From an uncultured Candidatus Saccharibacteria bacterium (GTDB lineage Bacteria > Patescibacteriota > Minisyncoccia > Phycocordibacterales > JAACPR01): a stretch of DNA of 64,000 bases. The notes under the pieces were generated by a model. The model did no database searches. It saw only the letters and a list, made by a program, of their open reading frames with translations, and had not been told where the DNA came from. The stretch covers positions 65,709-129,708 of the forward strand of contig CAZIEY010000002.1 in NCBI GenBank assembly GCA_964538855.1, read 5' to 3'. Both the position numbers and the translations under genes were made by a program. Positions 7,092 to 64,000 of the stretch are shown in pieces. The number at the start of each line of letters is the position of its first letter. Position 1 is the first letter of the stretch.

Positions 7092-7964
7092 ATGTGGATG
7101 TGGACCTGGATCAAAACTCATAAGGCGCTGACGGCACTTGTAGTCTTGGCGATTGCCATTGCGGTGACTGCCTGGAGGAAGTGGCCTGATACCACCAAGA
7201 TCGAAGCGTCCGCAAAGGCTGAAATGCATGTTAAACTGCAGCAGCTTGAGGACGAGAAAAAGGTCTTAGCGGATAAACTTGCGAGTTCGGAAAAGTTCAC
7301 CAAAGAGTTGGATGAATGGAGCACGCAGCAAACAAATAAGCTTGCTGCCGTGTCGAACGAACTCGTGCAGGTCAAAGCAGCTCTTGAAGCTGCTACTAAG
7401 CCGGCGACTACAGACGCGGTGGAGCGGGCTTCAAACCCCAGTTCATCGGTGTCGTCGACCCTGACGATCAAGGTGCAGGAGAAGAGTCAGGCAGTTGACC
7501 GAGAGCACGCCGAGGCAAAGCTGCAAGGCATGTTCACTTCGGGAACGTTGGTTGATCCAAAGGCGCCTGTTGAAACCCAGCGTGCCTTCGGAGAAGCTCT
7601 AGCCTCGATGTCTGTTCCCAGCAAGTCTGGTGCAGACCTCAAGGTGACGGAGCGCTTCGTTCCTGCGGGATATCTGTTGGTTCCCACCTGGGAGCAGCAA
7701 CAGACAAAGCTGGGTGGAAACCCAGAGATCGATATCCCCCTGTACAAGGGTGAGTTGGTTGCGGGAACTAAGACCGCTCCACCTGTCGATATCGACTTGG
7801 AATCGGGATACTACTGGTTCCATGTCACCGATGCAAAATTGGTGAATCGGGCGTGGAAACACGCCGTTGAGCAAGAGGTACTTTGGGGCAGAAAGAAAGG
7901 AACTGCGCCCAAGACCCCTTCTCCTCGATCCAGCTTCTTCGGAAGAGGGTCGAGGACATCATAA
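7092..7964 (+). CDS. Hypothetical membrane-anchored coiled-coil protein; conspicuously GC-rich gene
   Basis: 290-aa ORF with strong SD. N-terminal TM (ALTALVVLAIAIAVTAW) followed by a coiled-coil (KLQQLEDEKKVLADKLASSEKF). G+C is visibly above the flanking genes. Confidence 0.6.
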   Translation: MWMWTWIKTHKALTALVVLAIAIAVTAWRKWPDTTKIEASAKAEMHVKLQQLEDEKKVLADKLASSEKFTKELDEWSTQQTNKLAAVSNELVQVKAALEAATKPATTDAVERASNPSSSVSSTLTIKVQEKSQAVDREHAEAKLQGMFTSGTLVDPKAPVETQRAFGEALASMSVPSKSGADLKVTERFVPAGYLLVPTWEQQQTKLGGNPEIDIPLYKGELVAGTKTAPPVDIDLESGYYWFHVTDAKLVNRAWKHAVEQEVLWGRKKGTAPKTPSPRSSFFGRGSRTS

Positions 7965-8110
7965 AGTCGTGGGGGTCGCAAGAGTGAGGATAAACACTCA
8001 AGCGACCTGGTCCATGCAATACGCGTCTCCCGTCTGGGCGACGCGTTTTCATTTGACAAATACTCTTACATATGGTATCATATTAATGAAAATAAATTAT
8101 TTAAAAATAT

Positions 8111-9133
8111 ATGAGTTTATCATTCAACACAAAGAAATATATCAAAATTATCGCATCTTTAATGTGCGTGTTTGCTTTGGTTCCTGGTAGTGTTCATGCA
8201 TTTACAACTATTGCTCCTCAAGATGGTTCATTTACTACAATCGCGCCGCAAGACAGTTCGGTTACAACTATTGCTCCTCAAAATGGATCGGTTACAACTA
8301 TTGCTCCGACGCATCACCAAGACTCGTCTTTTACTACAATCGCACCCTCATACGGTGGTTCTAGTAATTATGGTTCATACGGCGGATCTATCAACTACGG
8401 TGGTTACTCCGGCTATTCAAGCGCATACAGCTACGGCACAAACGGTCCTTCATATACGCCTCGATGGAATCCGAATGTTGGCAACTGGTCTGCGAGCTAC
8501 CAAACAAATTATGCGGTGAATGCCCCTGTTCCAAATACACCAGCTTTCGTTAACGGAAACGGCGGAGAAGTTGATATGAGTGGTTGGACTACAGACTATC
8601 GATTAACATACGGAACAAATACAAGCACAGATTATCGCGTAACTTGTTTCGTTGAAGATACAACTGTTCGACGTGGTGACGATGTAGAATTTTCTGCTCG
8701 AGCTATCGGCGGTTCTGGTGACTACGAATACGAATGGTTTGGTGACGACGGTATCGACAGTTCACGAGATGAATTCGAACATGACTTTGATCACGATGGT
8801 GTGTATCGTGTTTCTGTTGAAGTAACAGATGCGGATGGTTACACTACTTCTGATGATTGTGATCCTATATATGTCGGACAGGGTTATTACGGAGTAAATT
8901 ATGTCCAAGATTACGGCTCACCAGAAGGTGAATTGGCAAATACTTCGTCTGTGTATTTGAGCCAGGTGCCTTATACAGGTGCCAAAGACAATGCGAAAAT
9001 CATTGGTCTTGTCGCACTTGTTGCAGTGTGGTCGGTCGCTCTCGGGTATTATTTCTTGAAGCGCCGAAGCACTCAGGCCGTTTCTAACCGAATTGCAGAT
9101 TTCAAGAAGGCGAATCTCGCAAGTCGAATCTAA
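8111..9133 (+). CDS. Cell-surface protein with tandem repeats, a PKD-like domain and an LPXTG-like (VPYTG) sorting signal
   Basis: Signal peptide, then five ~10-aa repeats (FTTIAPQDGS and variants) and a G/S/Y-rich segment. A PKD-like motif follows (YEYEWFGDDG...HDGVYRVSVEVTDADGYTTS). The C-terminus is VPYTG + hydrophobic helix + KRRS tail, the classic sortase-substrate architecture. Confidence 0.7.
   Translation: MSLSFNTKKYIKIIASLMCVFALVPGSVHAFTTIAPQDGSFTTIAPQDSSVTTIAPQNGSVTTIAPTHHQDSSFTTIAPSYGGSSNYGSYGGSINYGGYSGYSSAYSYGTNGPSYTPRWNPNVGNWSASYQTNYAVNAPVPNTPAFVNGNGGEVDMSGWTTDYRLTYGTNTSTDYRVTCFVEDTTVRRGDDVEFSARAIGGSGDYEYEWFGDDGIDSSRDEFEHDFDHDGVYRVSVEVTDADGYTTSDDCDPIYVGQGYYGVNYVQDYGSPEGELANTSSVYLSQVPYTGAKDNAKIIGLVALVAVWSVALGYYFLKRRSTQAVSNRIADFKKANLASRI
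8201..8362 (+). repeat. Five tandem ~30-39 bp in-frame coding repeats inside the surface-protein gene
   Basis: tttacaactattgctcctcaagatggttca / tttactacaatcgcgccgcaagacagttcg / gttacaactattgctcctcaaaatggatcg and two more variants. Confidence 0.8.
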
Positions 9134-9138
9134 TACGA

Positions 9139-9223
9139 ATCAAACAAAAAACTCTTATATTTTAAAAGTCTGGTTGAGCGAAAGCGACCCGAGGACTTTA
9201 AAATTAAGAGCTTTTTTGTTTGG
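9139..9223. repeat. Palindromic intergenic element, copy 2 (short form) between convergent genes
   Basis: caaacaaaaaactcttatattttaaaagtctggttga-gcgaaa-gcgacccgaggactttaaaattaagagcttttttgtttgg. Same core ends as copy 1, no inner 45-bp module, and the outer arms are again self-complementary. Confidence 0.75.
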
Positions 9224-10996
9224 CTACTTCTGATCTAATCGAGTTGCAATTTCTTCTTTGATTCGAGCAACCAAATCTGATTCCGAAAATGCGATTTTAT
9301 CGCCGGAACGCAATTCAACTTGGAATGTTTTTGATTCAACTTCTTTGTCACCGATTACCACAAGGTACGGCACTTTGTAATTTTTAGCTTCGTGAATACG
9401 TTTACCGAGGCTGCTGTTGCCGCTATACGTAGTGCATCGAATGCCGTTTTCGCGCAACACGTCGTGCAATTTTTTCGCAGCTTCGTCATGATTTTCACGC
9501 ACTGGAATTACCGCAACTTGAATTGGTGACAGCCATGTAGGGAAGTTTCCAGCAAAATGTTCAATCAAAAATCCGATGAACCGTTCGTGAGTTCCAAGGG
9601 GTGCGCGGTGAATGATCGCAGGTGTTTTTCGAGTGCTGTCTTTATCGGTATATTCGAGCCCGAATTTTTTACCCATGTATAAGTCGAGCTGATTTGTCGA
9701 AGCGGTAAATGAGCGTCCGATCGATGAATAAATTTGGAAGTCCATTTTTGGTCCGTAGAATGCAGCACCTTCGTGAGCAATTTTAAATGGTACGCCAGAT
9801 TTTTTCATGGCTTCAATCGTCATATTTTCTGCATCCTTCCAATCATTTTCGTCACCATGATATTTATCCATTTTGTTTGGATCACGCAATGCCAATTCCA
9901 TTTCATAGTTAGTGATACCGAGAATTTCGTAATAGTATTGGTGCATTTTAATTACATTCACAAATTCATCAACCGCTTTTTCTTTTTGAATATAGATGTG
10001 GGCATCATTCATTTGCATTCCTCGAACACGCATCAAACCAAAAAGACTGCCAGAATCTTCGAATCGGTGGCACCAGCCGTATTCAGCGAGGCGCACTGGC
10101 AAATCGCGATAACTTTTTGGTCGAGCTGCAAAAGTTTTATGGTGGAAAGGACAGTTCATTGGCTTGATGTAGTAATTTTCTTCCTCGATTACAATCGGAG
10201 CGTACATACTGTCTTTGTATAATGGCAAGTGACCAGACGTATGGAAGAGGTGCTCTTTTGTAATGAGCGGAGTTGTGACGCGTTGATAGCCCCATTTTTC
10301 TTCGGTTTCTTTTGCCCACTTTTCCAATTCTTCTTTTATAATGTTTCCATTTGGCAACCAAATTGGAAGTCCTTTACCAATTTCTTCGTCGAAATAGAAA
10401 ATGTCCATCGCATCGCCAATTTTTCGGTGATCACGTTTTTCAGCTTCTTCGAGATTTTTCTTGTAAGCCTCAAATTCCGCTCCAGTTTCAAACGCCACGC
10501 CGTAAATTCGTGTGAGCATTTTGTTTTTTTCGCTACCACGCCAATATGCGCCGGCGATTTTTGTGAGCTCGAATCCGTCGGCATCAATTTCGCTCGTGTT
10601 TTCAATGTGAGGGCCTGCGCAGAGATCGGTGAATTTATCACCGGTTTTGTATACAGACAACGTTGCGCCGTCTTTGATAAGGTCGGCAATTAATTCCATT
10701 TTATATGGTTGGTCTGCAAACATTTTCTTTGCTTCGTCTGCGGTCACTTCTGCATACGTGAAAGGGAGTTTGCCACCAATTAACTTTTTCATGCCTTTCT
10801 GAAAATCCTTCAATTCTTTTTCAGTCGGAGCTTTTCCTTCGCTAAATTCAAAATCGTAATAAAACCCATTATCAATAACCGGTCCAATCGCCAATTTGGC
10901 TTTCGGATCGAATTTAAGCACTTCGATTGCAAGAAGGTGCGCCAAAGAATGGCGAACTTTCGCAACGTGCGCTACGTTGTTGTCTGTTTTTGTCAT
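9224..10996 (-). CDS. thrS: Threonyl-tRNA synthetase (short form without the N-terminal TGS domain)
   Basis: Class II aaRS catalytic core and C-terminal anticodon-binding domain. The N-terminus starts at the editing-domain HxxxH region (VRHSLAHLLA); 590 aa. Confidence 0.9.
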   Translation of the reverse strand: MTKTDNNVAHVAKVRHSLAHLLAIEVLKFDPKAKLAIGPVIDNGFYYDFEFSEGKAPTEKELKDFQKGMKKLIGGKLPFTYAEVTADEAKKMFADQPYKMELIADLIKDGATLSVYKTGDKFTDLCAGPHIENTSEIDADGFELTKIAGAYWRGSEKNKMLTRIYGVAFETGAEFEAYKKNLEEAEKRDHRKIGDAMDIFYFDEEIGKGLPIWLPNGNIIKEELEKWAKETEEKWGYQRVTTPLITKEHLFHTSGHLPLYKDSMYAPIVIEEENYYIKPMNCPFHHKTFAARPKSYRDLPVRLAEYGWCHRFEDSGSLFGLMRVRGMQMNDAHIYIQKEKAVDEFVNVIKMHQYYYEILGITNYEMELALRDPNKMDKYHGDENDWKDAENMTIEAMKKSGVPFKIAHEGAAFYGPKMDFQIYSSIGRSFTASTNQLDLYMGKKFGLEYTDKDSTRKTPAIIHRAPLGTHERFIGFLIEHFAGNFPTWLSPIQVAVIPVRENHDEAAKKLHDVLRENGIRCTTYSGNSSLGKRIHEAKNYKVPYLVVIGDKEVESKTFQVELRSGDKIAFSESDLVARIKEEIATRLDQK

Positions 10997-11011: not shown

Positions 11012-14000
11012 CTATTTTATAAGATTTTCCAATGTCGCCGCCTTGTCGACGAGTAAACTGAATTCGCCGTTGCGATCCGAATATTTTCCCTTAACAATAA
11101 TACAATTGCCCGGAACGAGTATAGTTTTGGACTTTTTGTACATTTCGGGGAAAAATACAACCTCGGCGGTGTCATTCGCGTCGGCGATTTGTACAAATGC
11201 CATCGCTGCGCCCTTTTTGGTCAAAATTTCTTTGACCGTTTCAACGTGTCCAATGAGTTTAAGTTCAACTCCGGCCTTTGCAGTTTTTTTAATTTTTGAA
11301 ATATTGAAGTCCGATTTCGCAAATTTTCCGCTATATTTGTCGAGAGGGTGGCCGGAAATGTAGAGACCGAGTAATTCTTTTTCCCATCGCAATTTTTGAT
11401 CGTTTGAAACCGGTTCGGCTTTTGTTAATTTCAATTTCGGCGCCGCGACAAGGTCAGAATTCGCAAACAAATTTGTCTGAGATTGTGATGCTTTCGCGAT
11501 TTCTTTGTTGTAGGCTAAAATCTCGTCCAAATTTTCAAGCATTTCATTTCGCTCTCCAAATGAATCGAGCGCGCCAGTTTTAATTAATGCTTCGAGAGAT
11601 TTTTTATTGAAAGCCCGACTGTGAACGCGCGAGATAAAGTTTTCAAGCGACGTATATGGTCCGCGCGCCTTTCGCTCTTCAATCATTTCAAGGGCGATAC
11701 CTTCACCAAAGTTTTTAATACTGCTGAGTCCAAAACGAATATCGCCGTCTGGGTGACCTTCTGGATTAGCTGCATTTTTTCTTTCGACCACAGCAAAGTC
11801 GACGAATGATTCGTTGATGTCGGGTGGCAATACGCGAATCCCAATTTTTTTACACTCCGCAATCATTTCAGCGATTTTTTCAACTTCACCAGAATCGGAT
11901 GTCAAAACGGCCGCCATATAAATGACAGGGAAGTTTGCCTTCAAATATGAAGTTAAATACGCAACGCGACCGTACGAAGCAGCGTGACCTTTGTTGAATC
12001 CGTAGGCGGCGAATGTTTCAATTGACTCCCACAAATGTTGTGTGTCTGATTTTGAAAGCCCACCTTTTTCAATACAACCTTTGGTGAATTTTTCGTACTC
12101 AGCCTTCATAACCTCGGGAATTTTCTTACCCATGGCTTTACGGAATTTGTCGGCTTCTCCCCATGAATATCCCGCTATCTTCACAGCAATCATCATAATA
12201 TCGTCTTGATAAATCAAAACTCCGTAGGTGCCTGCGATAATTTCTTTGAAGCGATCGTCGATGTACGTCACTTTGCTTGGGTCGTGTTTACGTGCGATAT
12301 AATCGGGAATGAAAGCCATCGGACCTGGACGGTAGAGCGCCACCATCGCGTTGATGTCGTTGATGTTTGTTGGTTTGAGCTCTTTCAAAAAGCGTGTCAT
12401 ACCCTGACCGTTCAATTGGAAAGTTGCCGCAGTTTCGCCACGTGCGAGCATCTCGTATGTTTTTTTGTCATCGAGTGGAATCGTTTCTGTATCCAAATCG
12501 AGTCCGCGAATTTTTTTAATAATGCGCAGAGTGTTTCCGATGATGGTTAAGTTTTTCAAACCAAGGAAGTCAAATTTCAAAAGCCCGATGCCGTCTTCAC
12601 CGACCGCGTGCATGTCGTACTGAGTAATTAATTTTCCTTCACCTTTTGGATCATATTGTACGGGCACGTGTTCGATCAGGGGGTCAGGAGAAATCACCAC
12701 ACCTGCGGCGTGGACACCAATGTGACGGGCGCAGCCTTCGATTTTTTGGGCCATATCGAGAATTTGTCCGACCTCTTCGTCGCTCTCGTACATTTCTTTC
12801 AGCTCAGGAACTTCATCAAGTGCCTTTTTGATGGTCATTGGAAAACCTTGCGCACCCATTGGAATTAATTTTGCAATTCTGTCGGCGATAGAAATTTCAA
12901 AACCCATAGCACGAGCAGCGTCGCGCACAGATCCACGGGCAAGCATAGTACCGAAAGTTCCGATTTGAGCCACGTGATTCGCACCATATTTTTCACGTAC
13001 GTAGGCGAGCAATTCGTCACGTCTATCGTCGGCAAAGTCCATATCGATGTCGGGCGCAGACGGACGTTCTGGATTGAGGAAGCGTTCAAACGGCAAACCG
13101 AACGCAATCGGATCAACTGCGGTAATTCCGACGAGATAGGAAATGTACGAACCAGCTGCGGAACCTCTTGTATTACTTTGGATTTTTAATTCTTTTGCTT
13201 TAGAAAAAAGATCCGCCACCACGAGGAAATATTTTGAGTAGCCTTTTTGTGAAATAATTTTAAGTTCGTAATCGATACGTTCTTGAATTGACGGCGTTAT
13301 GTCGATACCTTTTTTCACAGCGCCAGCCAAAGCCATTTCACGTAACGCTTCGTCCGCAGTTTTGCCACCAGGAATTATGAAGTTGGGGAATTTCCATTGT
13401 TTGAGGGGAATTTCCAAATTGCAAGCATCGACGATTTTTTGAATGTTGTCGAGAGCTTCTGGTGTGTCTTTAAAAAACTCGTTCGCTTTTTCTTGTGTTG
13501 TAAATGAAAAATCCTCTGTCGTCGTATCAAAAGTAGACTCTTTGCCACCGAAACTGCTTTGTACGGAAAGGAGAGTTCGTCGCGCACCGTAATCGTCCGG
13601 TTTGATGTAATAGACGTCGTTTGCTGCGACGAGTGGAATTTTTTCGGTCGCTGCGAATTTCTTGATTTTTTCGGTAAGCGCAGGGAATTCGGCAATTTCA
13701 GGGTGATGTAATAATTCGAGGTAAAAATCATCGCCGAAAATACCACGCAAAAATTGCGCTGTCTCACGAGCTTTCTCGGCTTCATCATTTTTCAGGTGCA
13801 CGGAAATTTCCCCAGCAAACGCGGGTGAAATACAAATCAAATCATTGTGATATTTTTCGAGTAACTCGCGGTCGATGCGCGGTTTGTAATAAAAACCTTC
13901 GAGATGCGAATAGGTGACGAGCTTGATGAGGGTTTTGTAGCCTTCGAAATTTTTTGCGAGCAACACGAGTCGTGTGCGCCGGTTATCGATACGCCCCTCT

Positions 14001-19999: not shown

Positions 20000-20000
20000 A

Positions 20001-20040
20001 TTGACTATATTATTGCTTTTTAAAAAAGTAGAGTTATAAT
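20001..20040 (+). promoter_or_regulatory. Candidate promoter for the GC-rich unit upstream of rnr
   Basis: ttgact 20001-20006 and ttgctt 20014-20019 as alternative -35 elements; tataat at 20035-20040. Spacing of 15 or 28 bp is suboptimal either way. Confidence 0.35.
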
Positions 20041-20091
20041 CGTATTTGGATGCACTGAAACCACAACGCAAGCACTGGAGGTAAAGACCAC

Positions 20092-20202
20092 ATGTCAAAG
20101 CGTCACGAAAAACAAAAAGCGAAGAAAAGGCACAGAGAGGCTAGCAATGGAGGTCCGTCTAGCAATTCGGGGACTCGGCAGAGCGGTAGAGGGGGTAAAT
20201 AG
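20092..20202 (+). CDS. Candidate small basic protein (36 aa) with strong SD; could instead lie within a structured RNA
   Basis: SD ggaggt is 9 nt upstream of the ATG. MSKRHEKQKAKKRHREASNGGPSSNSGTRQSGRGGK. Not in the ORF track because it is under 60 aa. Confidence 0.35.
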   Translation: MSKRHEKQKAKKRHREASNGGPSSNSGTRQSGRGGK

Positions 20203-20204
20203 CC

Positions 20205-20366
20205 ATGGCGCTTAAACCCCTGAAGTTCACATGCCGAAATCCTTGTTTCCGCTCGATTGACGGTACTGGCGGTGGCAAAGGAAAACGGGTGTTCGTTGCC
20301 CGTAAACTCTCGAAGGGTGCTTGCCCTTCCGCTTCTGGTATTCCCAATAAGGCGAGGTGGGAATAA
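20205..20366 (+). CDS. Candidate small protein (53 aa) with strong SD, immediately downstream
   Basis: SD gaggggg is 9 nt upstream of ATG 20205. MALKPLKFTCRNPCFRSIDGTGGGKGKRVFVARKLSKGACPSASGIPNKARWE has three Cys. A GC-rich segment inside an AT-rich genome. Confidence 0.35.
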   Translation: MALKPLKFTCRNPCFRSIDGTGGGKGKRVFVARKLSKGACPSASGIPNKARWE

Positions 20367-20390
20367 TCGTTTCTCTCCCTTGTCTCATTT

Positions 20391-20421
20391 GGCCCGCGCA
20401 AGCACGCGGGCCTTTCCTTTT
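20391..20421 (+). terminator. Rho-independent terminator
   Basis: ggcccgcgcaagcacgcgggcc is a perfect 8-bp stem, followed by tttccttttat. Confidence 0.7.
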
Positions 20422-20449
20422 ATCTACAAACTGCTACCATATATATCAA

Positions 20450-22461: not shown

Positions 22462-22959
22462 TCACCAGATGTCCGGACCTTCTTGGATGACCTCGATGGT
22501 GCCGGGTTGGTAACCCTCCTCTCCGGATCGTCCTGCATTCAGCAGACGTTGGAGTTCTTGAGCGTTACTGGTTGTAATCGTTATTGTGACGAACCCATCA
22601 GCCGGGAAGTGTTTCCGAATCACACGAATGTACAGCTGCCGCCTGACTCCACCTGCGTCCAGCATTTCTTTGAACAGGTAACGGACCTTATCGTTGTGAC
22701 ACATGAGGTAATGAAGGTCGCGCCAGCAAGCTTCACGAATAACCTGACGTGCAGCGTCCATATTTTCGTACATGGCGCGAAAAGCTTCCAGTGTAACCTC
22801 ATGAAAATCATGAGTAGGCAAGGAGATCGTGCCAGCCTTAGCCGTCACCAACAAATCACGGCACTTTCTTGCCTGCGTAATATCAAACTTCTCGCGACCC
22901 CACATGAGGTCGTACAGTCCTTGGTAAAACGCAAAGACCTGCTCCATAGGCTTTTTCAT
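22462..22959 (-). CDS. Hypothetical protein; GC-rich gene
   Basis: 165-aa ORF with no recognisable motif and markedly higher G+C than its neighbours. Convergent with rnr, with a palindromic hairpin (agaaagagggcgcctctttct) between them. Confidence 0.5.
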   Translation of the reverse strand: MKKPMEQVFAFYQGLYDLMWGREKFDITQARKCRDLLVTAKAGTISLPTHDFHEVTLEAFRAMYENMDAARQVIREACWRDLHYLMCHNDKVRYLFKEMLDAGGVRRQLYIRVIRKHFPADGFVTITITTSNAQELQRLLNAGRSGEEGYQPGTIEVIQEGPDIW

Positions 22960-23989: not shown

Positions 23990-24117
23990 AAGAAAAACAA
24001 AGTAACTAAATTTTAAAGTCCTCGGGTCGCATCACGCACGTTCAGAAATGAATGTGCGTTTTGTGTTGATGCTCAACCAGACATTTAAAATTTAGTTACT
24101 TTGTTTTTCTTGACAAG
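23990..24117. repeat. Palindromic intergenic element, copy 3 (long form, inverted orientation)
   Basis: aaaaacaaagtaactaaattttaaagtcctcgggtcgc...ctcaaccagacatttaaaatttagttactttgttttt. Near-exact reverse complement of the copy-1 core, including the 45-bp inner module. The outer arms, taactaaa / tttagtta, are self-complementary but differ from copy 1. Confidence 0.75.
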
Positions 24118-24193: not shown

Positions 24194-24487
24194 ATGACTG
24201 AACCTGAGTTTCAAACGCTCTTGAAGACAGCTGCTGGGCCGTATCAATCGGCTTATTTTGCGGGTCAGAATGCGCGAGGTGAATTTGTCCGTCTTGGTTT
24301 CAATCGAGAACAGGTGGACTCAGCCGTCAAGGCGGTGGAAAAGCTGTTCGAGGGTAATCTTGGTTTTTTCCCCCAACCCCACATCGTCACGGCGGCTTAT
24401 GAAGATCACAATAGGCTCGGGTTGCAAAACTCCGAAAGCGAACAAGGCATCAGTCTTGTTGATGCTGAGGTGTCTGGCAAGATTTGA
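24194..24487 (+). CDS. Hypothetical protein (97 aa) at the position where rimM is usually found
   Basis: ORF followed by a strong terminator. No RimM motifs. Moderately GC-rich. Confidence 0.45.
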   Translation: MTEPEFQTLLKTAAGPYQSAYFAGQNARGEFVRLGFNREQVDSAVKAVEKLFEGNLGFFPQPHIVTAAYEDHNRLGLQNSESEQGISLVDAEVSGKI

Positions 24488-45442: not shown

Positions 45443-46075
45443 GTGTTTGATCTCATTACTCAACCCGTGATGGTTTTGTGTGGTCGTGCCGCATCAGGCA
45501 AACGAAAGTTTGCAAGACTATGCAAAGATCGTTATCCCAGCATTGAGCACATCGAAGTGGGGCAACTGCTTCGTGATGCGGCTAGGTTCAGTAATTCTGG
45601 TATTGGAACAATCATCGCTGGCTACCAATTACGAGGTGAACACGTTCCGGATAATTTGGTGTTTGAATTTCTTCGAAAACGTATCGAGGATCTGAAGGCA
45701 CCAATTATTTTGGATGGATTTCCTCGTACTATGCCACAGGCAAGAGTCTTCTCTTCATTTAGACAAGCTTGGTACGGAGTCCGGATCGAGCGCGATGAGG
45801 AATTTTGTCGCAACCTGGTTCAGCGTCGTATCGCCGAATATCGGGAGTTAGGTGAGGAACCTCGACCTGATGATACACTCGAAACCTTCGAAAAGCGGGT
45901 TGCGAAGTATCCAAAGGAATTGGCTTCGTTCGAATTCGCAGTCGAATTGTGTGGTTCTGCCGTGTATCATACCCATCCCAATACTCCGGAATTGCAGCCG
46001 GAGGTCGAAGCTGTCATTAAATATCACGCTGGTTTTTTCAAGGGACTCCAGTGTGTTAGTGAGCGAGCTGGGTGA
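45443..46075 (+). CDS. Adenylate-kinase-family protein with a non-canonical P-loop; GC-rich gene
   Basis: ILDGFPRTMPQA (the Adk NMP-binding signature), IEVGQLLRDA, and GEHVPDNLV. Walker A is GRAASGKRK, with Arg where Thr/Ser is expected. GTG start behind SD ggaggtg. Confidence 0.55.
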   Translation: MFDLITQPVMVLCGRAASGKRKFARLCKDRYPSIEHIEVGQLLRDAARFSNSGIGTIIAGYQLRGEHVPDNLVFEFLRKRIEDLKAPIILDGFPRTMPQARVFSSFRQAWYGVRIERDEEFCRNLVQRRIAEYRELGEEPRPDDTLETFEKRVAKYPKELASFEFAVELCGSAVYHTHPNTPELQPEVEAVIKYHAGFFKGLQCVSERAG

Positions 46076-48972: not shown

Positions 48973-49323
48973 TCAGTAGGTGTTGCCGGGAAGGATCATC
49001 GGTTGGCTCTGGTTGGGAAACCATGCCACACTCAGATACTTCGGCGTGAATTCTTCGTTGTCCGCCATGGATCCCGAATCATACGGGATGATCTTCAGGC
49101 CGTTTTGGCTCTTGACCAGGAACCCGGGCGAGCCCGAGAATCCGTCGAAGGACTGATTGTAACGGCCGACGACTTCGACGACCTCCTCGCGACGGGTGTC
49201 ATCGGTTTTCTTCTCCATACGGTCGAGCACCAGTGTGCTCGCAATGACGATCAGACAGATCGTCTTCAGGACGTTCAGCAGGTCTTTCATTGTGCTTATC
49301 TTTGGTGTTGGTTTTTGGGACAC
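48973..49323 (-). CDS. Hypothetical small membrane-anchored protein; GC-rich, between uvrA and uvrC
   Basis: GTG start behind SD aggagg with 5-nt spacing, and a TM/signal-anchor LKTICLIVIASTLVL; 116 aa. Confidence 0.5.
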   Translation of the reverse strand: MSQKPTPKISTMKDLLNVLKTICLIVIASTLVLDRMEKKTDDTRREEVVEVVGRYNQSFDGFSGSPGFLVKSQNGLKIIPYDSGSMADNEEFTPKYLSVAWFPNQSQPMILPGNTY

Positions 49324-50660: not shown

Positions 50661-50826
50661 CTAATAGAAAGTATTGTTACTGTATACCAATCTAGGTAAT
50701 GGCGACGTAGAGGGTAAATTGCCTATAAAAATTGTAGGTAACTCATCCTCTACGAGGATTACTATCTCATGTCGGGATAGTGAAACTTGGCACGCCACAG
50801 TGGCACGCCAAAAAAGGAGATTAGCA

Positions 50827-52160
50827 TGAAATCGTTATCGCAATTACGTGATAAGGCGCAACTTGCACTTGCAAAACGCGAACTGGTTCAAGTGGCCGAG
50901 AATTTCTCGCCCACAGCAGCTTACGAGCGAGCAATCGCATTATACTATAGCGAAGAGATGGCGCGAAGCTGTCGATTCCTAGCGATCATCTACCGTGACT
51001 ATGGCAAGGATGCTGTTGAGAATTTGATCAGGGATAAGCGCGAGGCAGACCTTGACCGATTTTTCAAGGAACGTGTAGTTCCAGGCATCTCTCTTCTGGA
51101 AACGGTTGGCGGTGGTAAATTGATGATTGTCGATCCTCAAGATTGTGATTTGCCGCTATTGGATTATCTCGAGAGATCGAAGGTTCACTCGTTGGACGTT
51201 GGGATGACGCTCGGAGAATACAGAATTGCTTTCAAGTGGCAGATTAAAAAGGACAGTAAGCACAACGATACGGAATGTCGTCTCGTTGTGATTGGTCCCG
51301 ATGGCAAGAACTTGGAATACACGGACTCCGACAACAAGGTTTATACCGAACAGTCCTTTACTATGATGTGTGGAAAGAGGCATCATCCAGACTCTGTGAA
51401 TCTTCGAAGCGAATTGTATCATGCCATCGAGAGACTCCTGTACGGAAACGTAGAGTGGCCTCACCAATCTGTAATGCTTCTGATTATTGCTGACTTGGAG
51501 AAGCGTGGGTGTAAGATGGCTCCCCGCCTCCAGCAGTACTGCAAAGATCGTGGGTTGGAACTGTGGAAGTTGAATGAGTATGGTCTCGTTGGTCAACTCA
51601 AACAGTTCGCCATGGATCTTCGTGGAAAAGCAGTTGCTGATGGAGTGTGTCCGCAAGGACTCGCATTTCTTGATCTGCAGATCGACCGAGCTATCAGTGA
51701 AGCAACTCTCTATAATGAAGTGTTCGATATGGGCACTTTACTTGTGAGTAAGCTTCATAATGTACATTTTTGGGTCGATTACCACGTAATTCCTGGCCCG
51801 AGGGCTGAAAAGACTTACAATTTTTTGCTCCACACGGATTCAGGAATGGGTGATTGGGTTACATTGCTGGAGAAGAAGGGTTACGGTGGTAGCGTCGTGA
51901 TTGCATTCTTTAATATCCACAGTGGCATGCAAGTTGCTCGGACCGGACAATGCGATGCCCTCCTTCTCCAACAGCACGGAGGTTGTCAAAAAGATGACAT
52001 CCTTGCTGAAGCTCAGAGTTCAATGGAGATAGCACAAGCAGCTCGTGGTAACACCAAAGTCTCGAAACTTCCGAGGTACAAATGGGACTCACACCATAGC
52101 GGTAGTCATCAGACGTGCGGTGGTTTCGATAAATTTCTTGACGAGTACTTTCCTAAATAA
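50827..52160 (+). CDS. Hypothetical protein (444 aa); GC-elevated, no recognisable domain
   Basis: Start set at MKSLSQ behind a perfect SD aaggag. Cys/His-rich C-terminal part. Confidence 0.55.
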
Positions 52161-53251: not shown

Positions 53252-53253
53252 AA

Positions 53254-53494: not shown

Positions 53495-53653
53495 ATTTAT
53501 TGTTATGAAAATCATTGTAAACAACATCGCCACCGAATACACGGATGAGGGCTCTGGCCCAGTCATTTTGTGTTTACATGGATGGAAGGACAGTTTGCGA
53601 ACATTTGATGCGCTCGAGCCTGAATTAGTGAAAAAAAATGTAGAAAACTCCGC
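53495..53653 (+). pseudogene. Truncated duplicate of the 5' end of the alpha/beta hydrolase gene
   Basis: 53495..53610 is 116/116 identical to 54135..54250, both starting exactly at the ATG. It then diverges and hits a stop after 13 codons (52 aa). Confidence 0.7.
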
Positions 53654-53702: not shown

Positions 53703-53996
53703 TCAGACCGGATCCCATGGTGCCGATTTGTTGTTCGGACGGTTCTTTGCTGGGCTGATCACCATGATGAGTCCAACAATGAGGGCGTATGCCGCTAGAC
53801 AATTTGAAAGGCCATGAGCGACAACGTGCAGAAAGGTCTCATCTCCATGCACGAGCCCATCCTCGATCCGTATTTGCTCTGCGTGCACGGTCTCGACGAT
53901 GGTTGTTGCCTCGGCGCGGGTTTTTTGGTTGATGACCAAAAACCAGATTGTATAGTACATCAAGATAACTATAATCAATTTCTCTGAGGTATGCAT
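53703..53996 (-). CDS. Small two-TM membrane protein carried on the 524-bp insert
   Basis: 97 aa with hydrophobic helices at both ends. SD gaggag 5 nt before the ATG. Confidence 0.6.
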   Translation of the reverse strand: MHTSEKLIIVILMYYTIWFLVINQKTRAEATTIVETVHAEQIRIEDGLVHGDETFLHVVAHGLSNCLAAYALIVGLIMVISPAKNRPNNKSAPWDPV

Positions 53997-54134: not shown

Positions 54135-54884
54135 ATGAAAATCATTGTAAACAACATCGCCACCGAATACACGGATGAGGGCTCTGGCCCAGTCATTTTG
54201 TGTTTACATGGATGGAAGGACAGTTTGCGAACATTTGATGCGCTCGAGCCGGCATTGCTCCAAAAAGGCCGAGTCATCGCCGTTGATTTGCCGGGCTTTG
54301 GCGAAACGGGAAATCCACCCGAAGCGTGGCAGGTTGGTGATTATGTGCAATTCGTCGCGGACTTTTTGAAAAAATTGAATGTCGAGGCGGACGTGCTCAT
54401 TGGCCACTCGTTCGGCGGGCGTATCATCATCAAGGGGCTTGGTGAAGGGAAATTGCGAGCTCAGAAAATAGTTTTGATCGCTTCCGCTGGAATCGTTCCT
54501 GAGAAAACGTGGCGAAGCCGTCTCGTCGCGATTGTCTCGCGTGCCGCGGCCGTTTTCTTCCGCATCCCGCCATTTCATTTTCTTCGCAATAAAATGCGCG
54601 CGATTTTCTATAAAAAAATCGGTAGCGATTATTTGAATGCCGGCGCTCTCCAGGAAACTTTCCTAAAAATTATTGCCGAAGATCTCTCTGACTACGCGCG
54701 ACGCATCACTATTCCGACCTTGCTCATCTGGGGCAAGCACGACAAGGCGACTCCTCTCGCGACCGCTGAAAAATTGCACGCGCTCATCGCTGGGTCTCGT
54801 CTCGAAGTTTTTCCCGACGCTGCTCATTTTGTGCATCATGAAAAAGCGGTGGAAGTCGGAGGGTTGATCAGTCGATTTTTGTAG
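54135..54884 (+). CDS. Alpha/beta-fold hydrolase
   Basis: LHGWKDS, nucleophile elbow GHSFGG, and a C-terminal His in the catalytic triad region. Extended -10 tgctacaat upstream. Confidence 0.8.
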   Translation: MKIIVNNIATEYTDEGSGPVILCLHGWKDSLRTFDALEPALLQKGRVIAVDLPGFGETGNPPEAWQVGDYVQFVADFLKKLNVEADVLIGHSFGGRIIIKGLGEGKLRAQKIVLIASAGIVPEKTWRSRLVAIVSRAAAVFFRIPPFHFLRNKMRAIFYKKIGSDYLNAGALQETFLKIIAEDLSDYARRITIPTLLIWGKHDKATPLATAEKLHALIAGSRLEVFPDAAHFVHHEKAVEVGGLISRFL

Positions 54885-55000: not shown

Positions 55001-55339
55001 ATGTATGCAAGAACCGTGTTGCAAATAACCACTTGGCATGATGACTTGGAATTCGTTATTCGAGAGCACAAAGCCAAAGGAAAATTCGGTTATTGGATTT
55101 CGCGGGGACCAGGAGGCCATATGGGACTTTTGTCGACCACTAATGCCGATTACCCTGTGACTGAAGCCCATGCATTCGAAGAGATTTCGAAGTTGCTTGA
55201 AAAAGCGCTCGAAGTCGCGGCATTGTTCGATGAAGGTGGTGGCCTTATGACCCGTGCTACTGTTGATCGAATTCTCTCTGATCTCAGGATAGGGAGGGTC
55301 GCGTCGACTTACAAATACAAACAACCGGCGATGACCTGA
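55001..55339 (+). CDS. Hypothetical protein (112 aa); GC-rich
   Basis: SD ggagga upstream; no recognisable domain. Confidence 0.45.
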   Translation: MYARTVLQITTWHDDLEFVIREHKAKGKFGYWISRGPGGHMGLLSTTNADYPVTEAHAFEEISKLLEKALEVAALFDEGGGLMTRATVDRILSDLRIGRVASTYKYKQPAMT

Positions 55340-56922: not shown

Positions 56923-56931
56923 ATAAAAAAA

Positions 56932-56970: not shown

Positions 56971-56979
56971 TACTTTCAT

Positions 56980-57408
56980 TCACCCTTCGGCTACCACAAC
57001 CGCGGGATTGGATTTGTCGGCCGTCGCCCAGTCGCTGGTCGTCGAGTGCCCAGTCTTCTCGACCTCTGCGACAATTCTGTCGATCTGGGCATAGGTCATG
57101 ATACTGCCCCTGTCTTTGTGAGCTCTCGGGATGTACCTGACCACTTTTCTTAGGAGTTTGCGAATAATCTTCGCCCCCTCCTTCGAATCCTGGATTTTCA
57201 ACGACTTTCTCGTCATGAAGATCTTTTCGGGTTTTGGCCCCGGATCGAGTCGCATGAGAATCCGAAGTTCGTTATCTCCTCCGTTATGTCGTTTTCCGAC
57301 GATAAACTCCAGGCGGAGAGGATTTTCCCAGATCAACCTCCTGCGAGTTTTGGGTATCTTCACATTGGGTATCTTAACAGTACGTTTTTTCACAAGACGC
57401 TTCTTCAC
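56980..57408 (-). CDS. Hypothetical highly basic protein (142 aa)
   Basis: Lys/Arg-rich ORF (MKKRLVKKRTVKIPNVKIPKTRRR...). Function unknown. Confidence 0.4.
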   Translation of the reverse strand: MKKRLVKKRTVKIPNVKIPKTRRRLIWENPLRLEFIVGKRHNGGDNELRILMRLDPGPKPEKIFMTRKSLKIQDSKEGAKIIRKLLRKVVRYIPRAHKDRGSIMTYAQIDRIVAEVEKTGHSTTSDWATADKSNPAVVVAEG

Positions 57409-57553
57409 GGCACATTCCTCCGTTTGAGCCTAAGGAACAGAACCCACCTGGCGCATGCCAAGTTTCGCTTCCTTCTAATGTACCTTTCTACCTAAAATTG
57501 CTAAATGTGTCAAACCTCGCGCCCATCTCGGAACTTGTGCTAAAATAAATCCC

Positions 57554-58891: not shown

Positions 58892-59035
58892 GAACAATCC
58901 CTCTTGGTTCTATTGCGTGGTAACATAATATGTGCTATAGTATTTTCTGGTTTTTTCAGGGTTTCCAGATGTGACTGATGTCATGTCGCCCTTGTTCGTT
59001 GAATCGTTTGTTGGATTGTGAAGAAGGGGTTTTCA

Positions 59036-59304
59036 TGAGAATTTCCATTGATCGACGCGCTGGCTGTATTGTAGTTGAAGCCGACGCGAAGAGTAAGACC
59101 GAAACTGCAATTAGAATGATGGAAGATCTCCATCAGCATGGTCAACTCAAAGATGTGACCGAGATTAAGATCAGGGGCTTCGTACGAGCTGCGGCCGAAA
59201 GGGTGCTTCTTATCATCGCCCGAAGGGTTGCGTTTGTGCGGGAATACATCTACGATGATGCCGCTCAGGATTACCTCGTCTACGATGAGACTGAACCCGC
59301 TTAA
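59036..59304 (+). CDS. Hypothetical protein (89 aa); GC-rich
   Basis: Start chosen at MRISIDRRAG behind a weak purine-rich SD-like element (gaagaagggg). Confidence 0.4.
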
Positions 59305-59966: not shown

Positions 59967-60146
59967 ATGAAGATTTTCCGGGTATTAGGAATCGCCTTGT
60001 TTATAGTCGTCCTACGCGCCCTCGCGCCGAGCCTCTGGCACGCGCTTGAGGGCACCCTCCTGACGTTCTTTGAGACACTGCAAAAACTGCTCGCGATGAG
60101 TACAAACTTTGCAGCGTCAGGACCAGGAATTTGGATACCTCAATAG
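59967..60146 (+). CDS. Candidate 59-aa hydrophobic small protein with its own promoter and terminator
   Basis: MKIFRVLGIALFIVVLRALAPSLWHALEGTLLTFFETLQKLLAMSTNFAASGPGIWIPQ. Promoter ttgaca-16-tatatt at 59776-59803 overlaps the palindrome gtcaaata-N5-tattgac. GC-rich 150-nt leader and no clear SD. Confidence 0.35.
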   Translation: MKIFRVLGIALFIVVLRALAPSLWHALEGTLLTFFETLQKLLAMSTNFAASGPGIWIPQ

Positions 60147-60251: not shown

Positions 60252-60335
60252 GCGCGGGTGGCGAAATTGGTAGACGCACTACCTTGAGGTGGTAACGCTC
60301 GCAAGGGCATGGAGGTTCGAGTCCTCTCTCGCGCA
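60252..60335 (+). tRNA. tRNA-Leu (anticodon GAG), type II; CCA not encoded
   Basis: GCGCGGG-TG-GCGAAATTGGTAGACGC-A-CTACC-TTGAGGT-GGTAA-[long variable arm]-GGAGG-TTCGAGT-CCTCT-CTCGCGC-A. Extended -10 tgctatact just upstream. Confidence 0.85.
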
Positions 60336-60493
60336 CATCAATGTGTCTGATTGACATATTACCTATAAATTGTGTAGTATTAGCCACGGCGTTATTGAAC
60401 CTTAACCCGAGCTGTCTTCGGACATCTCACACTGGCTTAATCAACCCGTGTCATTCAAAATCACCGATTGATTATCGGTTGTAGGAGAAGCAA

Positions 60494-61204
60494 ATGCATT
60501 CGGAACACCAGAAAACCTGGCGCGAGTTGTTAAACGGGCCGCGCGGGTGGGTCTTTGTTTGGTTGATGCTCATAATCGTTCTGTCCACAACGTGTGGCAG
60601 AACCGCAGAGGTGGAGGGTGGAGGATTTAACTTCACCGCGAGCGGCGAGCTGATCAATCTTCCAGCGTTCACACACGCGCATTTAACCCACCGAGGAGAT
60701 TCTTTCTTGCCGAATTCCCAGGCGTCTGGGTCGGCGGGGACGACCTCTGTTGGGGGATCGTGGGAGCCATTTTGTGCAATCGGGGTTGAATATCAACGAC
60801 CTTTGATTGCGGACAAGCTTCAGCTTTCTGTGGCTGGATCATTGATGCTCAGTGACGAGCGTGATCAGGTGCAGAATAAAAACGATTCGCGCCCTGCCTC
60901 TGAATCGGCCTATGTTTTTTCCTCCGCTGAATGCGGTGGAAATGCGCAAGTAGGCTTACTCTATAATCTGGCACCATCAATCGGTGTTGGAGTAGTGGGG
61001 CAACTCACTGTCATTAGTGAGAGATACGGATGGAACCGGTTCGGTGAGGATGAAACGAGTGGAAGGCAATTCCATCCGTTTATGTCCGTTGGACCAAAAG
61101 TCCATTGGGCGTTTTGCAAAACTCAGAGGCTAGAGTTTGCCGTACTTGCCGGCGAATTGACTAGTTTTCGGGTGATGTGGTTGCTTGAGGTGGGTGATCC
61201 GTAA
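60494..61204 (+). CDS. Hypothetical secreted/membrane protein (236 aa); GC-elevated
   Basis: N-terminal hydrophobic segment WVFVWLMLIIVLSTTCG. SD aggaga upstream. Structured ~105-nt 5' UTR with a GUC-UUCG-GAC hairpin. Confidence 0.5.
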   Translation: MHSEHQKTWRELLNGPRGWVFVWLMLIIVLSTTCGRTAEVEGGGFNFTASGELINLPAFTHAHLTHRGDSFLPNSQASGSAGTTSVGGSWEPFCAIGVEYQRPLIADKLQLSVAGSLMLSDERDQVQNKNDSRPASESAYVFSSAECGGNAQVGLLYNLAPSIGVGVVGQLTVISERYGWNRFGEDETSGRQFHPFMSVGPKVHWAFCKTQRLEFAVLAGELTSFRVMWLLEVGDP

Positions 61205-62315: not shown

Positions 62316-62388
62316 TGGACCGGAGAGGACTCGAACCCCCTACCTCCTCAGTGCAAGTGAGGCGCTCTACCAGGTGAGCTACCGGCCC
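62316..62388 (-). tRNA. tRNA-Ala (anticodon UGC); CCA not encoded
   Basis: Reverse complement GGGCCGG-TA-GCTCACCTGGTAGAGC-G-CCTCA-CTTGCAC-TGAGG-AGGTAGGGG-GTTCGAGTCC-TCT-CCGGTCC-A. The G3:U70 identity pair is present. Confidence 0.9.
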
Positions 62389-62478
62389 TTAATTAGGACT
62401 TTGATTATTCTACCTGCTTTGGCTAATAAATCAAGTCCAATATGCGATTTCGTTGGTATAATAAAAGCAACTGGGTCT

Positions 62479-63462
62479 ATGCGACGTACAAAATTACATC
62501 ACAAAATTCGGAATCATGTGGCGCGAAATTATGCTTTTTTCATATTCGTCTCTGTTTTTGCTGGTGTTTATCTATTGTCGAATTCGGTGCGTAGTGATAA
62601 GCCGGAAATTGTTTTCATTAAAGCTGCGAGCGAAGAGACTATCTTGCAAGAGTTAGACGACCGTGGATTTTTCAAAAACCGTCCGACATATTGGTTTGTT
62701 TCGGCTCTCGCTCGGTTCGACGAGAAAATTCAATCGGGCGGATATGTTGTGTCGCGAAACGCGAATGCAATTGCACTCTATTCAGAATTACGTGATCCGT
62801 CGTATCGATATGTGGCGATTCAGGAGGGTTTGCGCAAGGAAGAGATTGCTGAAAGATATGCCAAGGTGTTGGATTGGGATCCGGCAAAAACCGCCGAATT
62901 TCAAGCGAGTCCAAACGCCTGCCTCTATTCTGGTCGCGAAGGGAGACTTTATCCTGGAGAATATTTGGTTTCCAAGGATGTGAGTATTCAAAAAATTCAG
63001 GATGAAATGGAAAATAATTTTGCGAACGCTTTTTCGAGCGTAATTTCGACCGAGAAAGAAAAAACTCTCGACGAAGATCAGATTGTAATTGTCGCCTCGC
63101 TCATTCAACGCGAGGCGGCCGGCGCGCACGATATGCGTCTCATTTCTGGCATCATTTGGAATCGCATTTTTGCAGGTATGCCGCTACAACTGGACGCGAC
63201 GTTGCAATATGCAAAAGGGGACGATGGCAAATGGTGGCCTCAGGTGAAATCCGAGGATAAATTTCTAGATTCGCCGTTCAACACGTATCAAAACGCGGGG
63301 CTTCCGCCGGCACCAATCGCAAATCCTGGCAAAGCGGCGCTCGATGCGGCTGCAAACCCGATCAAAACCGATTGTCTCTTTTACTTGCATGATCGCAACC
63401 GCACAATTCATTGTTCGCCGACCTATGAAGGGCATTTGCTGAATATTAAAAATTATTTGTAA
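62479..63462 (+). CDS. mltG: Endolytic murein transglycosylase MltG (YceG-like)
   Basis: The start was moved to MRRTKLHH because the track ORF overlaps the tRNA-Ala. N-terminal TM and the YceG signature NTYQNAGLPPAPIANPGKAALDAAANP. Confidence 0.8.
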   Translation: MRRTKLHHKIRNHVARNYAFFIFVSVFAGVYLLSNSVRSDKPEIVFIKAASEETILQELDDRGFFKNRPTYWFVSALARFDEKIQSGGYVVSRNANAIALYSELRDPSYRYVAIQEGLRKEEIAERYAKVLDWDPAKTAEFQASPNACLYSGREGRLYPGEYLVSKDVSIQKIQDEMENNFANAFSSVISTEKEKTLDEDQIVIVASLIQREAAGAHDMRLISGIIWNRIFAGMPLQLDATLQYAKGDDGKWWPQVKSEDKFLDSPFNTYQNAGLPPAPIANPGKAALDAAANPIKTDCLFYLHDRNRTIHCSPTYEGHLLNIKNYL

Positions 63463-63527
63463 GGAGTTGCGGTACGCTGTGATTTTTGATAAGAAATAGA
63501 GCGGACCACAACCATAAGGAGGTTTTC

Positions 63528-64000
63528 ATGGGTGGATCTTTGTCGGCAAAAATGCCGCAACTCTTGATTGATGCTTCTGTCAAAGCAACGCTGGCTGATT
63601 TGATAGAAGAAATCGGCTTTGCATTCGTTGATCATCGTATCAATCTGGATACTATCGACTGCGAAGCTAGCGGTGTTCCATTCACTGCTGAATTCCACGA
63701 TTTGCTCGAGGTGCCTTCGGTATATCAAGTCACTGAAACCGAGGGGCGACACTTGGCGACCTTGCGCGACATACTGCTTTTTACCCAGGAATTGATTTTG
63801 CAGTGCGAAACCGACGTATTGGAAAAGCTGCACGTAGTGATTTACGCGCTTGGCTCCGAGGTGAGGATTGGAAGTGTTATCCATCTTCCGAAAGTCGAGA
63901 TCGATCGCGGGGTGTTCCGGCTTGAGCTCGTCTTCATGTACGAGGAGAAGTTTTCTGCTCGAGACGTGTACATGAAGCGCGGTGACCCAGCCGCCGCTTA
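63528..64000 (+). CDS. Hypothetical protein, partial (runs off the window end); GC-rich
   Basis: SD aaggagg 5 nt upstream of the ATG. Preferred over the overlapping minus-strand ORF 63453..63884, which lacks an SD. Confidence 0.45.
   Translation, partial: MGGSLSAKMPQLLIDASVKATLADLIEEIGFAFVDHRINLDTIDCEASGVPFTAEFHDLLEVPSVYQVTETEGRHLATLRDILLFTQELILQCETDVLEKLHVVIYALGSEVRIGSVIHLPKVEIDRGVFRLELVFMYEEKFSARDVYMKRGDPAAA

Follow-up and report, generated by a model that had tools for sequence, protein, structure and literature searches.

Single-gene cassettes with Shine-Dalgarno-led, G/C-ending reading frames in the spacers of a Paceibacteria housekeeping region, probably exchanged horizontally

The 64,000-nucleotide stretch of contig CAZIEY010000002.1 analysed here (the window) is, by Pfam annotation, a dense series of housekeeping genes with an overall G+C content (GC) of 0.433. 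Scattered between these genes are ten open reading frames (ORFs) that an earlier inspection of the DNA, the sequence-only reading, had flagged as visibly GC-rich and had proposed to be acquisitions from a high-GC donor, for instance the host of an epibiont. This raises the question of whether these ORFs are foreign to the genome and, if so, what kind of gene pool they came from, a question that touches on the hosts of the Candidate Phyla Radiation (CPR), on gene flow and on the large fraction of ORFans. The evidence presented below points to single-gene accessory cassettes that are probably exchanged horizontally and constitute the flexible gene complement of a streamlined Paceibacteria genome. 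The data support horizontal gene transfer (HGT) in general terms, while some members of the set are inherited stably within the genus. In kind this is a known HGT phenomenon, with an unusually crisp signature.

The ten ORFs (c1 to c10, Table 1) form one class with two further ORFs found by the same criteria (53703-53996 and 56980-57408, with a third possible member listed in Table 1), and this class is set apart from the core genes by both codon usage and the presence of a Shine-Dalgarno (SD) sequence. The G-ending fraction at Lys, Glu and Gln codons is 0.49 in the candidates, as against 0.24±0.08 in the core genes of both halves of the window (Mann-Whitney p=2e-6), and the candidates lie at a distance of 0.45-0.57 from the core in relative synonymous codon usage (RSCU), the resampling maximum being 0.27. 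The codons enriched in the candidates are CTG, AGG, AAG, GAG and CCC. This deviation in codon usage is seen for all ten ORFs, including c4, c6, c7 and c8, which group with the other candidates and not with the core even though their GC is not elevated. A strong SD (GGAG, GGAGG or AGGAG, ~5-12 nt upstream of the start; duplex dG -6.6 to -12.5) precedes 12 of 13 cargo ORFs, whereas the median anti-SD duplex energy of 39 core genes is 0 (p=6e-7); the "several strong SDs" noted previously were thus an understatement. In nine of the SD-led cargo ORFs the start codon behind the SD is the first one in the frame, which excludes a bias from the picking of starts.

To place the window among its relatives we used back-translated searches with UvrA, which recovered 80 species-level relatives, all of them metagenome-assembled genomes of Paceibacteria/Parcubacteria-type Patescibacteria, the closest at 78% identity; the source of the window is, to judge from its sequence, a streamlined Paceibacteria (Patescibacteria/CPR) genome. 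Exact-sequence and cluster look-ups of the window proteins additionally provided sister loci from three or four genomes, namely L085 (GCA_013565675.1), L086 and L096 (GCA_964412465.1), L087 (GCA_020047435.1), and L092 and L094 (IMG 3300050184). The SD is kept in the sister orthologues of the cargo genes, and in the sisters a strong SD is present in 11 of 16 GC3-rich cargo genes (GC3 being GC at third codon positions), as opposed to 2 of 14 AT-rich cargo genes and 7 of 52 core genes. Across the 80 Paceibacteria species only 6% of 263 core genes (tgt, uvrABC and ddl) have a strong SD. The core genes instead frequently show a -10-like box (TATAAT, TACAAT or TAAAAT) that ends 5-16 nt upstream of the ATG; 14 of 40 core genes have one, and none of the cargo genes. 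Such a box abutting the ATG suggests mRNAs that are leaderless or carry short leaders. Two independent signals, the SD and the G-ending codons, thus allow accessory genes to be told from a core that is SD-less and biased toward AT. Modelling with GeneMarkS-2 has reportedly described mixed genomes of leaderless and SD-led genes with "atypical" genes, the SD typically occurring in operon-internal genes. The window resembles these in combining leaderless-type and SD-led starts in one genome and in having a separate atypical compositional class. It differs in that its core is SD-less whether or not a gene leads an operon, and in that SD use tracks the accessory class almost perfectly.

GC content itself is a less consistent marker. 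Relative to the core genes lying within 8 kb, c1, c2, c3, c5, c9 and c10 have a significantly higher raw GC, while c4, c6, c7 and c8 are indistinguishable from their neighbours (Table 1); hence the proposed excess over a core of ~40% GC stands for the first six and fails for the other four. The ~40% baseline was moreover wrong for the 40-64 kb part of the window, where core genes have a mean GC of 0.456 (GC3 0.465) and are themselves 45-49% GC, compared to 0.409 (GC3 0.367) in the first 40 kb. This step occurs near 40.28 kb, at the junction of fkbp and tgt, and is also seen in the sister L092. Such regional shifts in core genes may mimic islands, and call for caution. The step is, however, not carried by G-ending Lys, Glu and Gln codons and is therefore distinct from the signature of the cargo class. 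Spacers between core genes have a GC of only ~0.25-0.37, which means that neutral drift runs toward AT and cannot account for the GC-rich ORFs. On a finer scale, core genes from tgt to ddl2 (40293-58891) have a GC3 of ~0.46-0.56, as compared with ~0.37 in 1-40275, the low-GC exceptions being a nudixHTH gene (41521-42228) and the DUF5665 gene (59388-59693).

A possible objection at this point is that the ORFs are spurious frames in GC-richer, stop-poor spacer DNA, or products of chimeric metagenome assembly. Nearly every candidate indeed also has a long antisense ORF opposite to it, and no known domain is found except in c4. However, all ten frames exist and correspond to called genes in public assemblies by exact look-up, with the starts of c6 and c8 each corrected by one base to those in Table 1, so that in this respect the earlier inspection was right. 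The first start codon is preceded by a correctly spaced SD, and c2 and c9 are present in sister genomes. The ratio of nonsynonymous to synonymous substitution rates (dN/dS) is below 1 for c2, c9 and 56980-57408, indicating that these three are under purifying selection, and c6 belongs to a conserved family with a confidently predicted fold (see below). Independent Logan assemblies of three runs contain c1 and c2, together with flanks and junctions, at 100% identity, which excludes assembly chimeras; exact copies of c1 are present in two of these independent assemblies. The objection is thus largely refuted already, and we regard an artefact as very improbable.

Comparison of gene order provides evidence for turnover. 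The order slog-fkbp-tgt-uvrB-uvrA-uvrC-ddl is held across most of the 80 Paceibacteria species, with spacers of 0 to over 6 kb; c5, c6 and c7 are absent from the slog-to-ddl neighbourhoods of these relatives, and c4 finds only two matches there, at 23-24% identity. The earlier suggestion that several of the genes sit inside otherwise conserved clusters such as uvrB/uvrA/uvrC is borne out by this. The sisters share ~80-90% nucleotide identity with the window and ~73-98% amino-acid identity in core proteins, with the core order kept. Yet c3, c5, c6, c7, c8, c10 and 53703-53996 are not found in the compared sisters, whose corresponding slots hold different ORFs or none (Table 1); the last of these ORFs, for instance, is absent from both L086 and L092. 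Homology between the window and its sisters ends sharply, at gene boundaries, and the insertion junctions coincide with a stop codon, a terminator or the start of the next gene. The terminators of c3 and c8 are their own short, terminator-like hairpins with T-runs. Given that ddl2 and DUF5665 are nearly contiguous in L086, the ~500-bp segment with c8 is an indel. What is observed is a turnover of single genes in the spacers, against a gene order that is rigid in other respects.

Table 1. Members of the cargo class and other features of the window, with GC and GC3 excess over core genes within 8 kb and the contents of the same slots in sister loci (TM, transmembrane segment)
Feature	Coordinates	Strand	Description	Slot	GC	GC3	SD	GC excess	GC3 excess	Slot in sisters
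c1	7092..7964	+	290-aa membrane-anchored coiled-coil ORFan	sortase / PKD-domain protein	0.537	0.598	AGGAGAAG	+0.112	+0.207	
c2	22462..22959	-	165-aa ORFan	RNase R / rpsP	0.506	0.554	GGGAG	+0.090	+0.185	
c3	24194..24487	+	97-aa ORFan, own terminator hairpin	KH-domain gene / trmD	0.500		GGAG	+0.084	+0.119	L085: three unrelated ORFs, 70 aa (GC 0.47), 138 aa (0.31), 144 aa (0.315)
c4	45443..46075	+	ADK-like nucleoside monophosphate kinase paralogue	uvrB / uvrA	0.476 (neighbour-like)		GGAGG	+0.032	-0.048	
c5	48973..49323	-	116-aa single-TM ORFan	uvrA / uvrC	0.538	0.726	AGGAGG	+0.078	+0.233	L092: Bro-N protein and 284-aa ORF
c6	50826..52160	+	444-aa three-domain cytoplasmic protein	uvrC / ddl	0.469 (equals neighbours)		AGGAG	+0.002		L092: 181-aa ORF; L086: TrpR-like gene and 90-aa ORF upstream of ddl
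53703-53996	53703..53996	-	97-aa two-TM ORFan	ddl / alpha/beta hydrolase	0.490	0.582	GAGGAG			
c7	55001..55339	+	112-aa ORFan	hydrolase / Mur ligase	0.478 (neighbour-like)		GGAGG	+0.012		L092: empty (50 bp); L086: unrelated DNA
56980-57408	56980..57408	-	142-aa basic ORFan	Mur ligase / second ddl-like gene	0.506	0.615	GGAGG			
c8	59035..59304	+	89-aa ORFan, bidirectional terminator hairpin at end	between convergent ddl2 and DUF5665	0.493		AAGGGG (weak)	+0.028		L086: ddl2 and DUF5665 ~8-10 bp apart
c9	60494..61204	+	236-aa TM and all-beta ORFan	158 bp downstream of tRNA	0.520 (GC2 0.468)		AGGAG	+0.059	+0.067	
c10	63528..63998	+	ORFan of at least 157 aa, continues past window end	after yceG	0.501	0.561	AAGGAGG	+0.047	+0.109	L086: unrelated 75-aa ORF, then ychF
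Possible further member	59967..60146	+								
132-nt direct repeat, first copy	53505..53636	+	5' end of alpha/beta hydrolase gene							
132-nt direct repeat, second copy	54135..54266		5' end of alpha/beta hydrolase gene							
Palindromic repeat	6012..6138			downstream of clpB						
Palindromic repeat	9142..9221			PKD gene / thrS spacer						
Palindromic repeat	23990..24115			after KH gene, left edge of c3 slot						
Long spacer	20000..20449			smc / rnr	0.476					L094: 100-aa ORF; L096: 130-aa ORF
ORF in long spacer	20159..20401	antisense	80-aa ORF	smc / rnr	0.539		none			
tRNA gene	60252..60336									

The cargo of the sisters in these slots is of two kinds: GC3-rich ORFans, most of which are SD-led, and AT-rich, SD-less genes, frequently with known domains. 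Examples of the latter in L092 are the Bro-N protein in the slot of c5 (12731-13537) and, in the uvrB|uvrA slot, a methyltransferase (9260-9835) beside the ADK-like gene; a BRO-family gene has also been named among transferred genes in Patescibacteria (PMC12455944). The smc|rnr spacer of the window is unusually long and may be a decayed cassette, the same slot in the sisters being occupied by differing SD-led, GC-rich ORFs (Table 1).

Several of the class members do have counterparts in the sisters. The orthologue of c2 in L085 is 94% identical (dN/dS 0.15) and stands out as a local high-identity block (~22.28-23.08 kb of the window), with a dS of 0.175 as against 0.53-1.7 in the flanking core genes. 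This three- to five-fold deficit indicates that c2 is younger than the split of the two genomes. In the case of c4, the L092 slot holds an ADK-like gene of only 50% identity, flanked by uvrB at 95% and uvrA at 98% identity, which points to replacement in place by a divergent allele. The c4 protein itself passes the Pfam ADK cut-off (E=9e-15; 55.6 bits versus 26.8) and remains below that of the NCBIfam adk model TIGR01351 (69 versus 168 bits), all equivalogs being far below their cut-offs. Neither the canonical P-loop GxxGxGK[G/S/T] nor GxPGxGKGT is present in c4, where residues 13-20 read GRAASGKR, with an Arg after the Lys. The slot of c1 in L096 contains a 261-aa gene with a GC of 0.545 and an identical SD, in which the N-terminal 117 residues, spanning the membrane anchor and coiled coil, are 51% identical to c1 and the C-terminal domain is unrelated. 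The 56980-57408 ORF has an orthologue in L086 with ~50-55% protein identity, a GC of 0.55, a conserved SD and a dN/dS of 0.42. The products of c1, c5, c9 and 53703-53996 are predicted from their TM segments to be envelope or surface proteins.

The family of the c6 protein could be traced beyond the sister genomes. An exhaustive HMMER search of 1.84e9 representative proteins recovered 51 relatives, ~17 of them full-length, and a metagenome scan with a reduced alignment added a view of three loci. All homologues with inspected context lie on Patescibacteria-like contigs at unrelated positions, e.g. adjoining MetRS in one contig and after dnaG-sigA in another, and exceed the surrounding DNA in GC (0.45-0.47 versus 0.35-0.42). 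The motif GGCACGCCA precedes the SD of c6, and a GGCACGCCA...AGGAG leader is common to three homologues. Since c6 is also absent from the sisters L086 and L092, its distribution is patchy and its position variable; as far as context was inspected, it appears to represent a small family exclusive to Patescibacteria that resides at differing loci. An AlphaFold2 (AF2) model of c6 shows three domains (pLDDT 89.5), with no whole-chain match in the PDB and a C-terminal α/β domain weakly resembling CheY and flavodoxin.

Taken together, these observations suggest a model in which each cassette, consisting of one gene with its own SD and seated exactly in the spacer between collinear housekeeping genes, would come from a gene pool unlike the resident genome in its G/C-ending codons and SD-led initiation. 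For entry, DNA would be taken up and inserted at spacers through homology-facilitated or illegitimate recombination. One footprint supports this proposal: the 53703-53996 cassette is bracketed by two 95% identical copies of a 132-nt direct repeat (Table 1), the downstream copy being the 5' end of the hydrolase gene itself. The repeat matches the N-terminus of the hydrolase in L086 and L092. This duplication looks like the footprint expected of single-crossover (Campbell-type) integration of a circular fragment. In L086, an AT-rich gene of 187 aa lies between two copies (6427-6444 and 6996-7013) of an 18-19-bp direct repeat, TAAAATAAATCCCATGAA, made up of the ribosome-binding site region and ATG of ddl2; this gene is not in the window and employs the original ddl2 start codon. 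Cassettes would then be gained, replaced and lost at their slots on the time scale of congeneric species, with some persisting and evolving fast under purifying selection. Protein identity to L092 across 36917-58614 is mosaic, with tgt, uvrB, uvrA, uvrC and ddl at 92-98% and LOG, FKBP, hydrolase and Mur ligase at 73-78%, the Mur ligase being 94% identical to that of another sister, L086; this mosaic speaks for frequent homologous recombination within the genus.

A number of results weigh against horizontal exchange of cassettes as the explanation for the whole set. With respect to mobility, no integrase or transposase was found among the window ORFs scanned for domains, and target-site duplications around the window slots did not rise above shuffled controls. 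The only mobility gene seen adjoining any class member is, in L087, an rve-family integrase/transposase (500-1447) that directly precedes the c9 homologue. The AT-rich, SD-less methyltransferase, Bro-N and Nudix genes in the slots of the sisters imply that GC-richness is not inherent to cargo. Class-wide, the association of SD with GC-rich cargo is weak and non-significant (27% versus 14-18%), probably because imprecise start sites blur this test. Furthermore, c1 (N-terminal half only), c2, c4, c9 and 56980-57408 are kept in place in the sisters, so that vertical conservation within the genus applies to these five and not to the other seven members. Among these is c9, which adjoins RNase T in L086 and L087 as in the window, and for which only four homologues (64-79% identity) exist among 5.8e9 clusters. 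Its dS of ~0.95 is like that of its neighbours (dN/dS 0.15), which indicates vertical descent since the split from those sisters, and its third-position changes, once polarised, are in balance (48 GC>AT, 37 AT>GC). The composition of c9 therefore looks maintained, with no clear amelioration, as opposed to that of a decaying relic. Its AF2 model, built from five sequences, is poor (pLDDT 47) and unsuited to fold search; the product might conceivably be a beta-barrel of the outer-membrane type.

Some of these points would be expected if the class were native, i.e. if it consisted of resident lineage-specific genes, many of them for the envelope, kept under a selected SD and codon regime, with patchiness arising from fast divergence and loss. 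The five genes just listed retain SD and composition as well as position in the sisters, the c9 substitutions are balanced at a dS of ~1, and dN/dS values of 0.15-0.42 speak for function. Nevertheless, such an origin is unlikely, as the sister slots hold unrelated sequences with sharp breakpoints at gene boundaries rather than diverged orthologues. It also does not sit well with the youth of c2 relative to its flanks, the unrelated loci of the c6 homologues in other lineages, or the 50% identity of the c4 alleles between nearly identical flanks. A related, more speculative and fairly improbable proposal is that the genus runs two expression regimes, one comprising SD-less, largely leaderless housekeeping genes, and the other SD-translated, fast-turnover, GC3-rich ORFans, many of them of the envelope. 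The class signature might then be actively maintained, with SD-dependent initiation gating accessory or host-interaction genes, or else it might point to the host as donor. That the signature would be maintained and not a fading relic is argued from the conservation of the SD in orthologues and the lack of amelioration in c9.

Exchange of cassettes remains the reading we prefer, and this leaves the question of the donor. The claim that the genes have no recognisable function apart from the Adk-like one is upheld, as searches of Pfam, NCBIfam, PHROGs and PADLOC gave no family match for any candidate except c4; PHROGs returned nothing at E<0.009, and the sole marginal PADLOC match (E=0.006) falls in the coiled-coil region of c1. 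For nine class members queried, tblastn against 50,697 GenBank phage records and searches of PLSDB plasmids and PDB sequences gave no match. Scans of IMG/VR gave no relatives of c5 or c2, and a scan of JGI metagenomes gave no close relative of c5. No donor was found for any gene, the sensitive all-database searches having covered c6 and c9 only, which also counts against exchange. Where families could be traced, the relatives of c9 occur only in sister genomes and those of c6 on Patescibacteria-like contigs where context was inspected.

The sequence-only reading was thus correct in regarding the genes as foreign-looking accessory genes, in agreement with their patchiness in sisters and the youth of c2, but its high-GC or host donor was not found. 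Transfer of genes or fragments from a high-GC, SD-using host or neighbouring bacterium, now partly ameliorated, would agree with the GC3 of c5 and its use of CTG for 80% of Leu codons. It would also agree with the SD-led initiation and G/C-ending codons of all candidates, which are foreign to the resident genome, and with the spread of candidate GC3 (0.41-0.73), which could reflect differing ages. We nonetheless consider it quite improbable, in view of the intra-phylum distribution of the c6 and c9 relatives among 1.84e9 and 5.8e9 proteins, respectively, the negative family, phage, plasmid and PDB searches, the lack of a close c5 relative in the JGI metagenomes and the absence of clear amelioration in c9. 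The pool might instead be constituted by other SD-using Patescibacteria or their mobile elements, rather than by a high-GC host. HGT is abundant in Patescibacteria, and most detected transfers into them come from other Patescibacteria (PMC12455944).

Among 203 ORFs taken from the slots of the 80 relatives, the excess of GC3 over the core correlates negatively with core GC3 (Spearman -0.65, p=7e-26): in genomes with a core GC of 0.36-0.40 the cargo is on average richer by 0.04 in GC and 0.10 in GC3, whereas in genomes with a core GC above 0.50 it is poorer by 0.07 in GC. This regression toward intermediate values agrees with a common pool of genes that is intermediate in composition. When 150 of the slot ORFs were screened with Pfam, the matches included 22 response regulators, 4 ADK-like proteins, histidine kinases, a YafQ toxin and miscellaneous enzymes. 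The combination of SD, codon signals, single-gene turnover and the intermediate-GC pattern provides a practical classifier for recent imports in these genomes, and offers a concrete way of looking for donors or hosts.

Among known systems, the cassettes most resemble flexible-genome islets, horizontally acquired ORFans of atypical composition in bacterial genomes that include the islands and single-gene transfers reported for Patescibacteria (PMC12455944), with which they share atypical composition and codon usage, patchy distribution and short ORFans. Further common features are insertion between conserved genes, sometimes near a tRNA, and the intra-phylum location of most traceable relatives. 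Unlike multi-gene islands, the genes of the window are single units distributed over many spacers, with no mobility gene in the window. They are also GC-richer than their host genome and use a different mode of translation initiation from the core; bacterial ORFans are, since the work of Daubin and Ochman in 2004, classically said to be AT-richer. Integron cassettes are similar in being compact units of one ORF that bring an SD of their own, in lacking an adjacent promoter box and in consisting mostly of ORFans without recognised function, with high turnover and a composition unlike the host's. We rejected this identification, as the cassettes of the window are dispersed singly and not arrayed, there is neither an attC site nor an integron integrase, and the c3 and c8 junctions show terminator-type hairpins only. 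Free-standing homing-endonuclease genes and morons of phages are likewise optional small genes placed precisely between conserved collinear genes and varying among close relatives. Here, however, the genome is that of a cellular host, and homing endonucleases were rejected on the lack of GIY-YIG, HNH or LAGLIDADG domains and of PHROG matches. Prophage genes were rejected on the PHROGs, phage tblastn and IMG/VR results given above, and a defence-island interpretation on the PADLOC and domain tests.

The housekeeping genes into which the cassettes are set comprise clpB, sortase, thrS, dnaE, rnhB, rpmF, nusB, rnc, smc and rnr; rpsP, the KH-domain gene, trmD, rpoB, rpoC, dnaG and sigA; and tgt, uvrB, uvrA, uvrC, ddl, Mur ligase and yceG. 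The tRNA gene upstream of c9 is conserved in L086 and scores 46 bits with the Rfam tRNA model; ARAGORN assigns it an odd two-base anticodon, and by eye it resembles a type-II tRNA-Leu(GAG) whose anticodon stem is mismatched. Finally, a palindromic repeat of ~120 nt occurs three times in the window, one copy being shorter (Table 1), and again in L096 (11772-11892). It has no match in Rfam, and two Logan contigs terminate within it. The long hairpin that the repeat forms on folding (dG -59.5 kcal/mol, z=-11) has a conserved core, and its outer stems vary between copies yet remain complementary.

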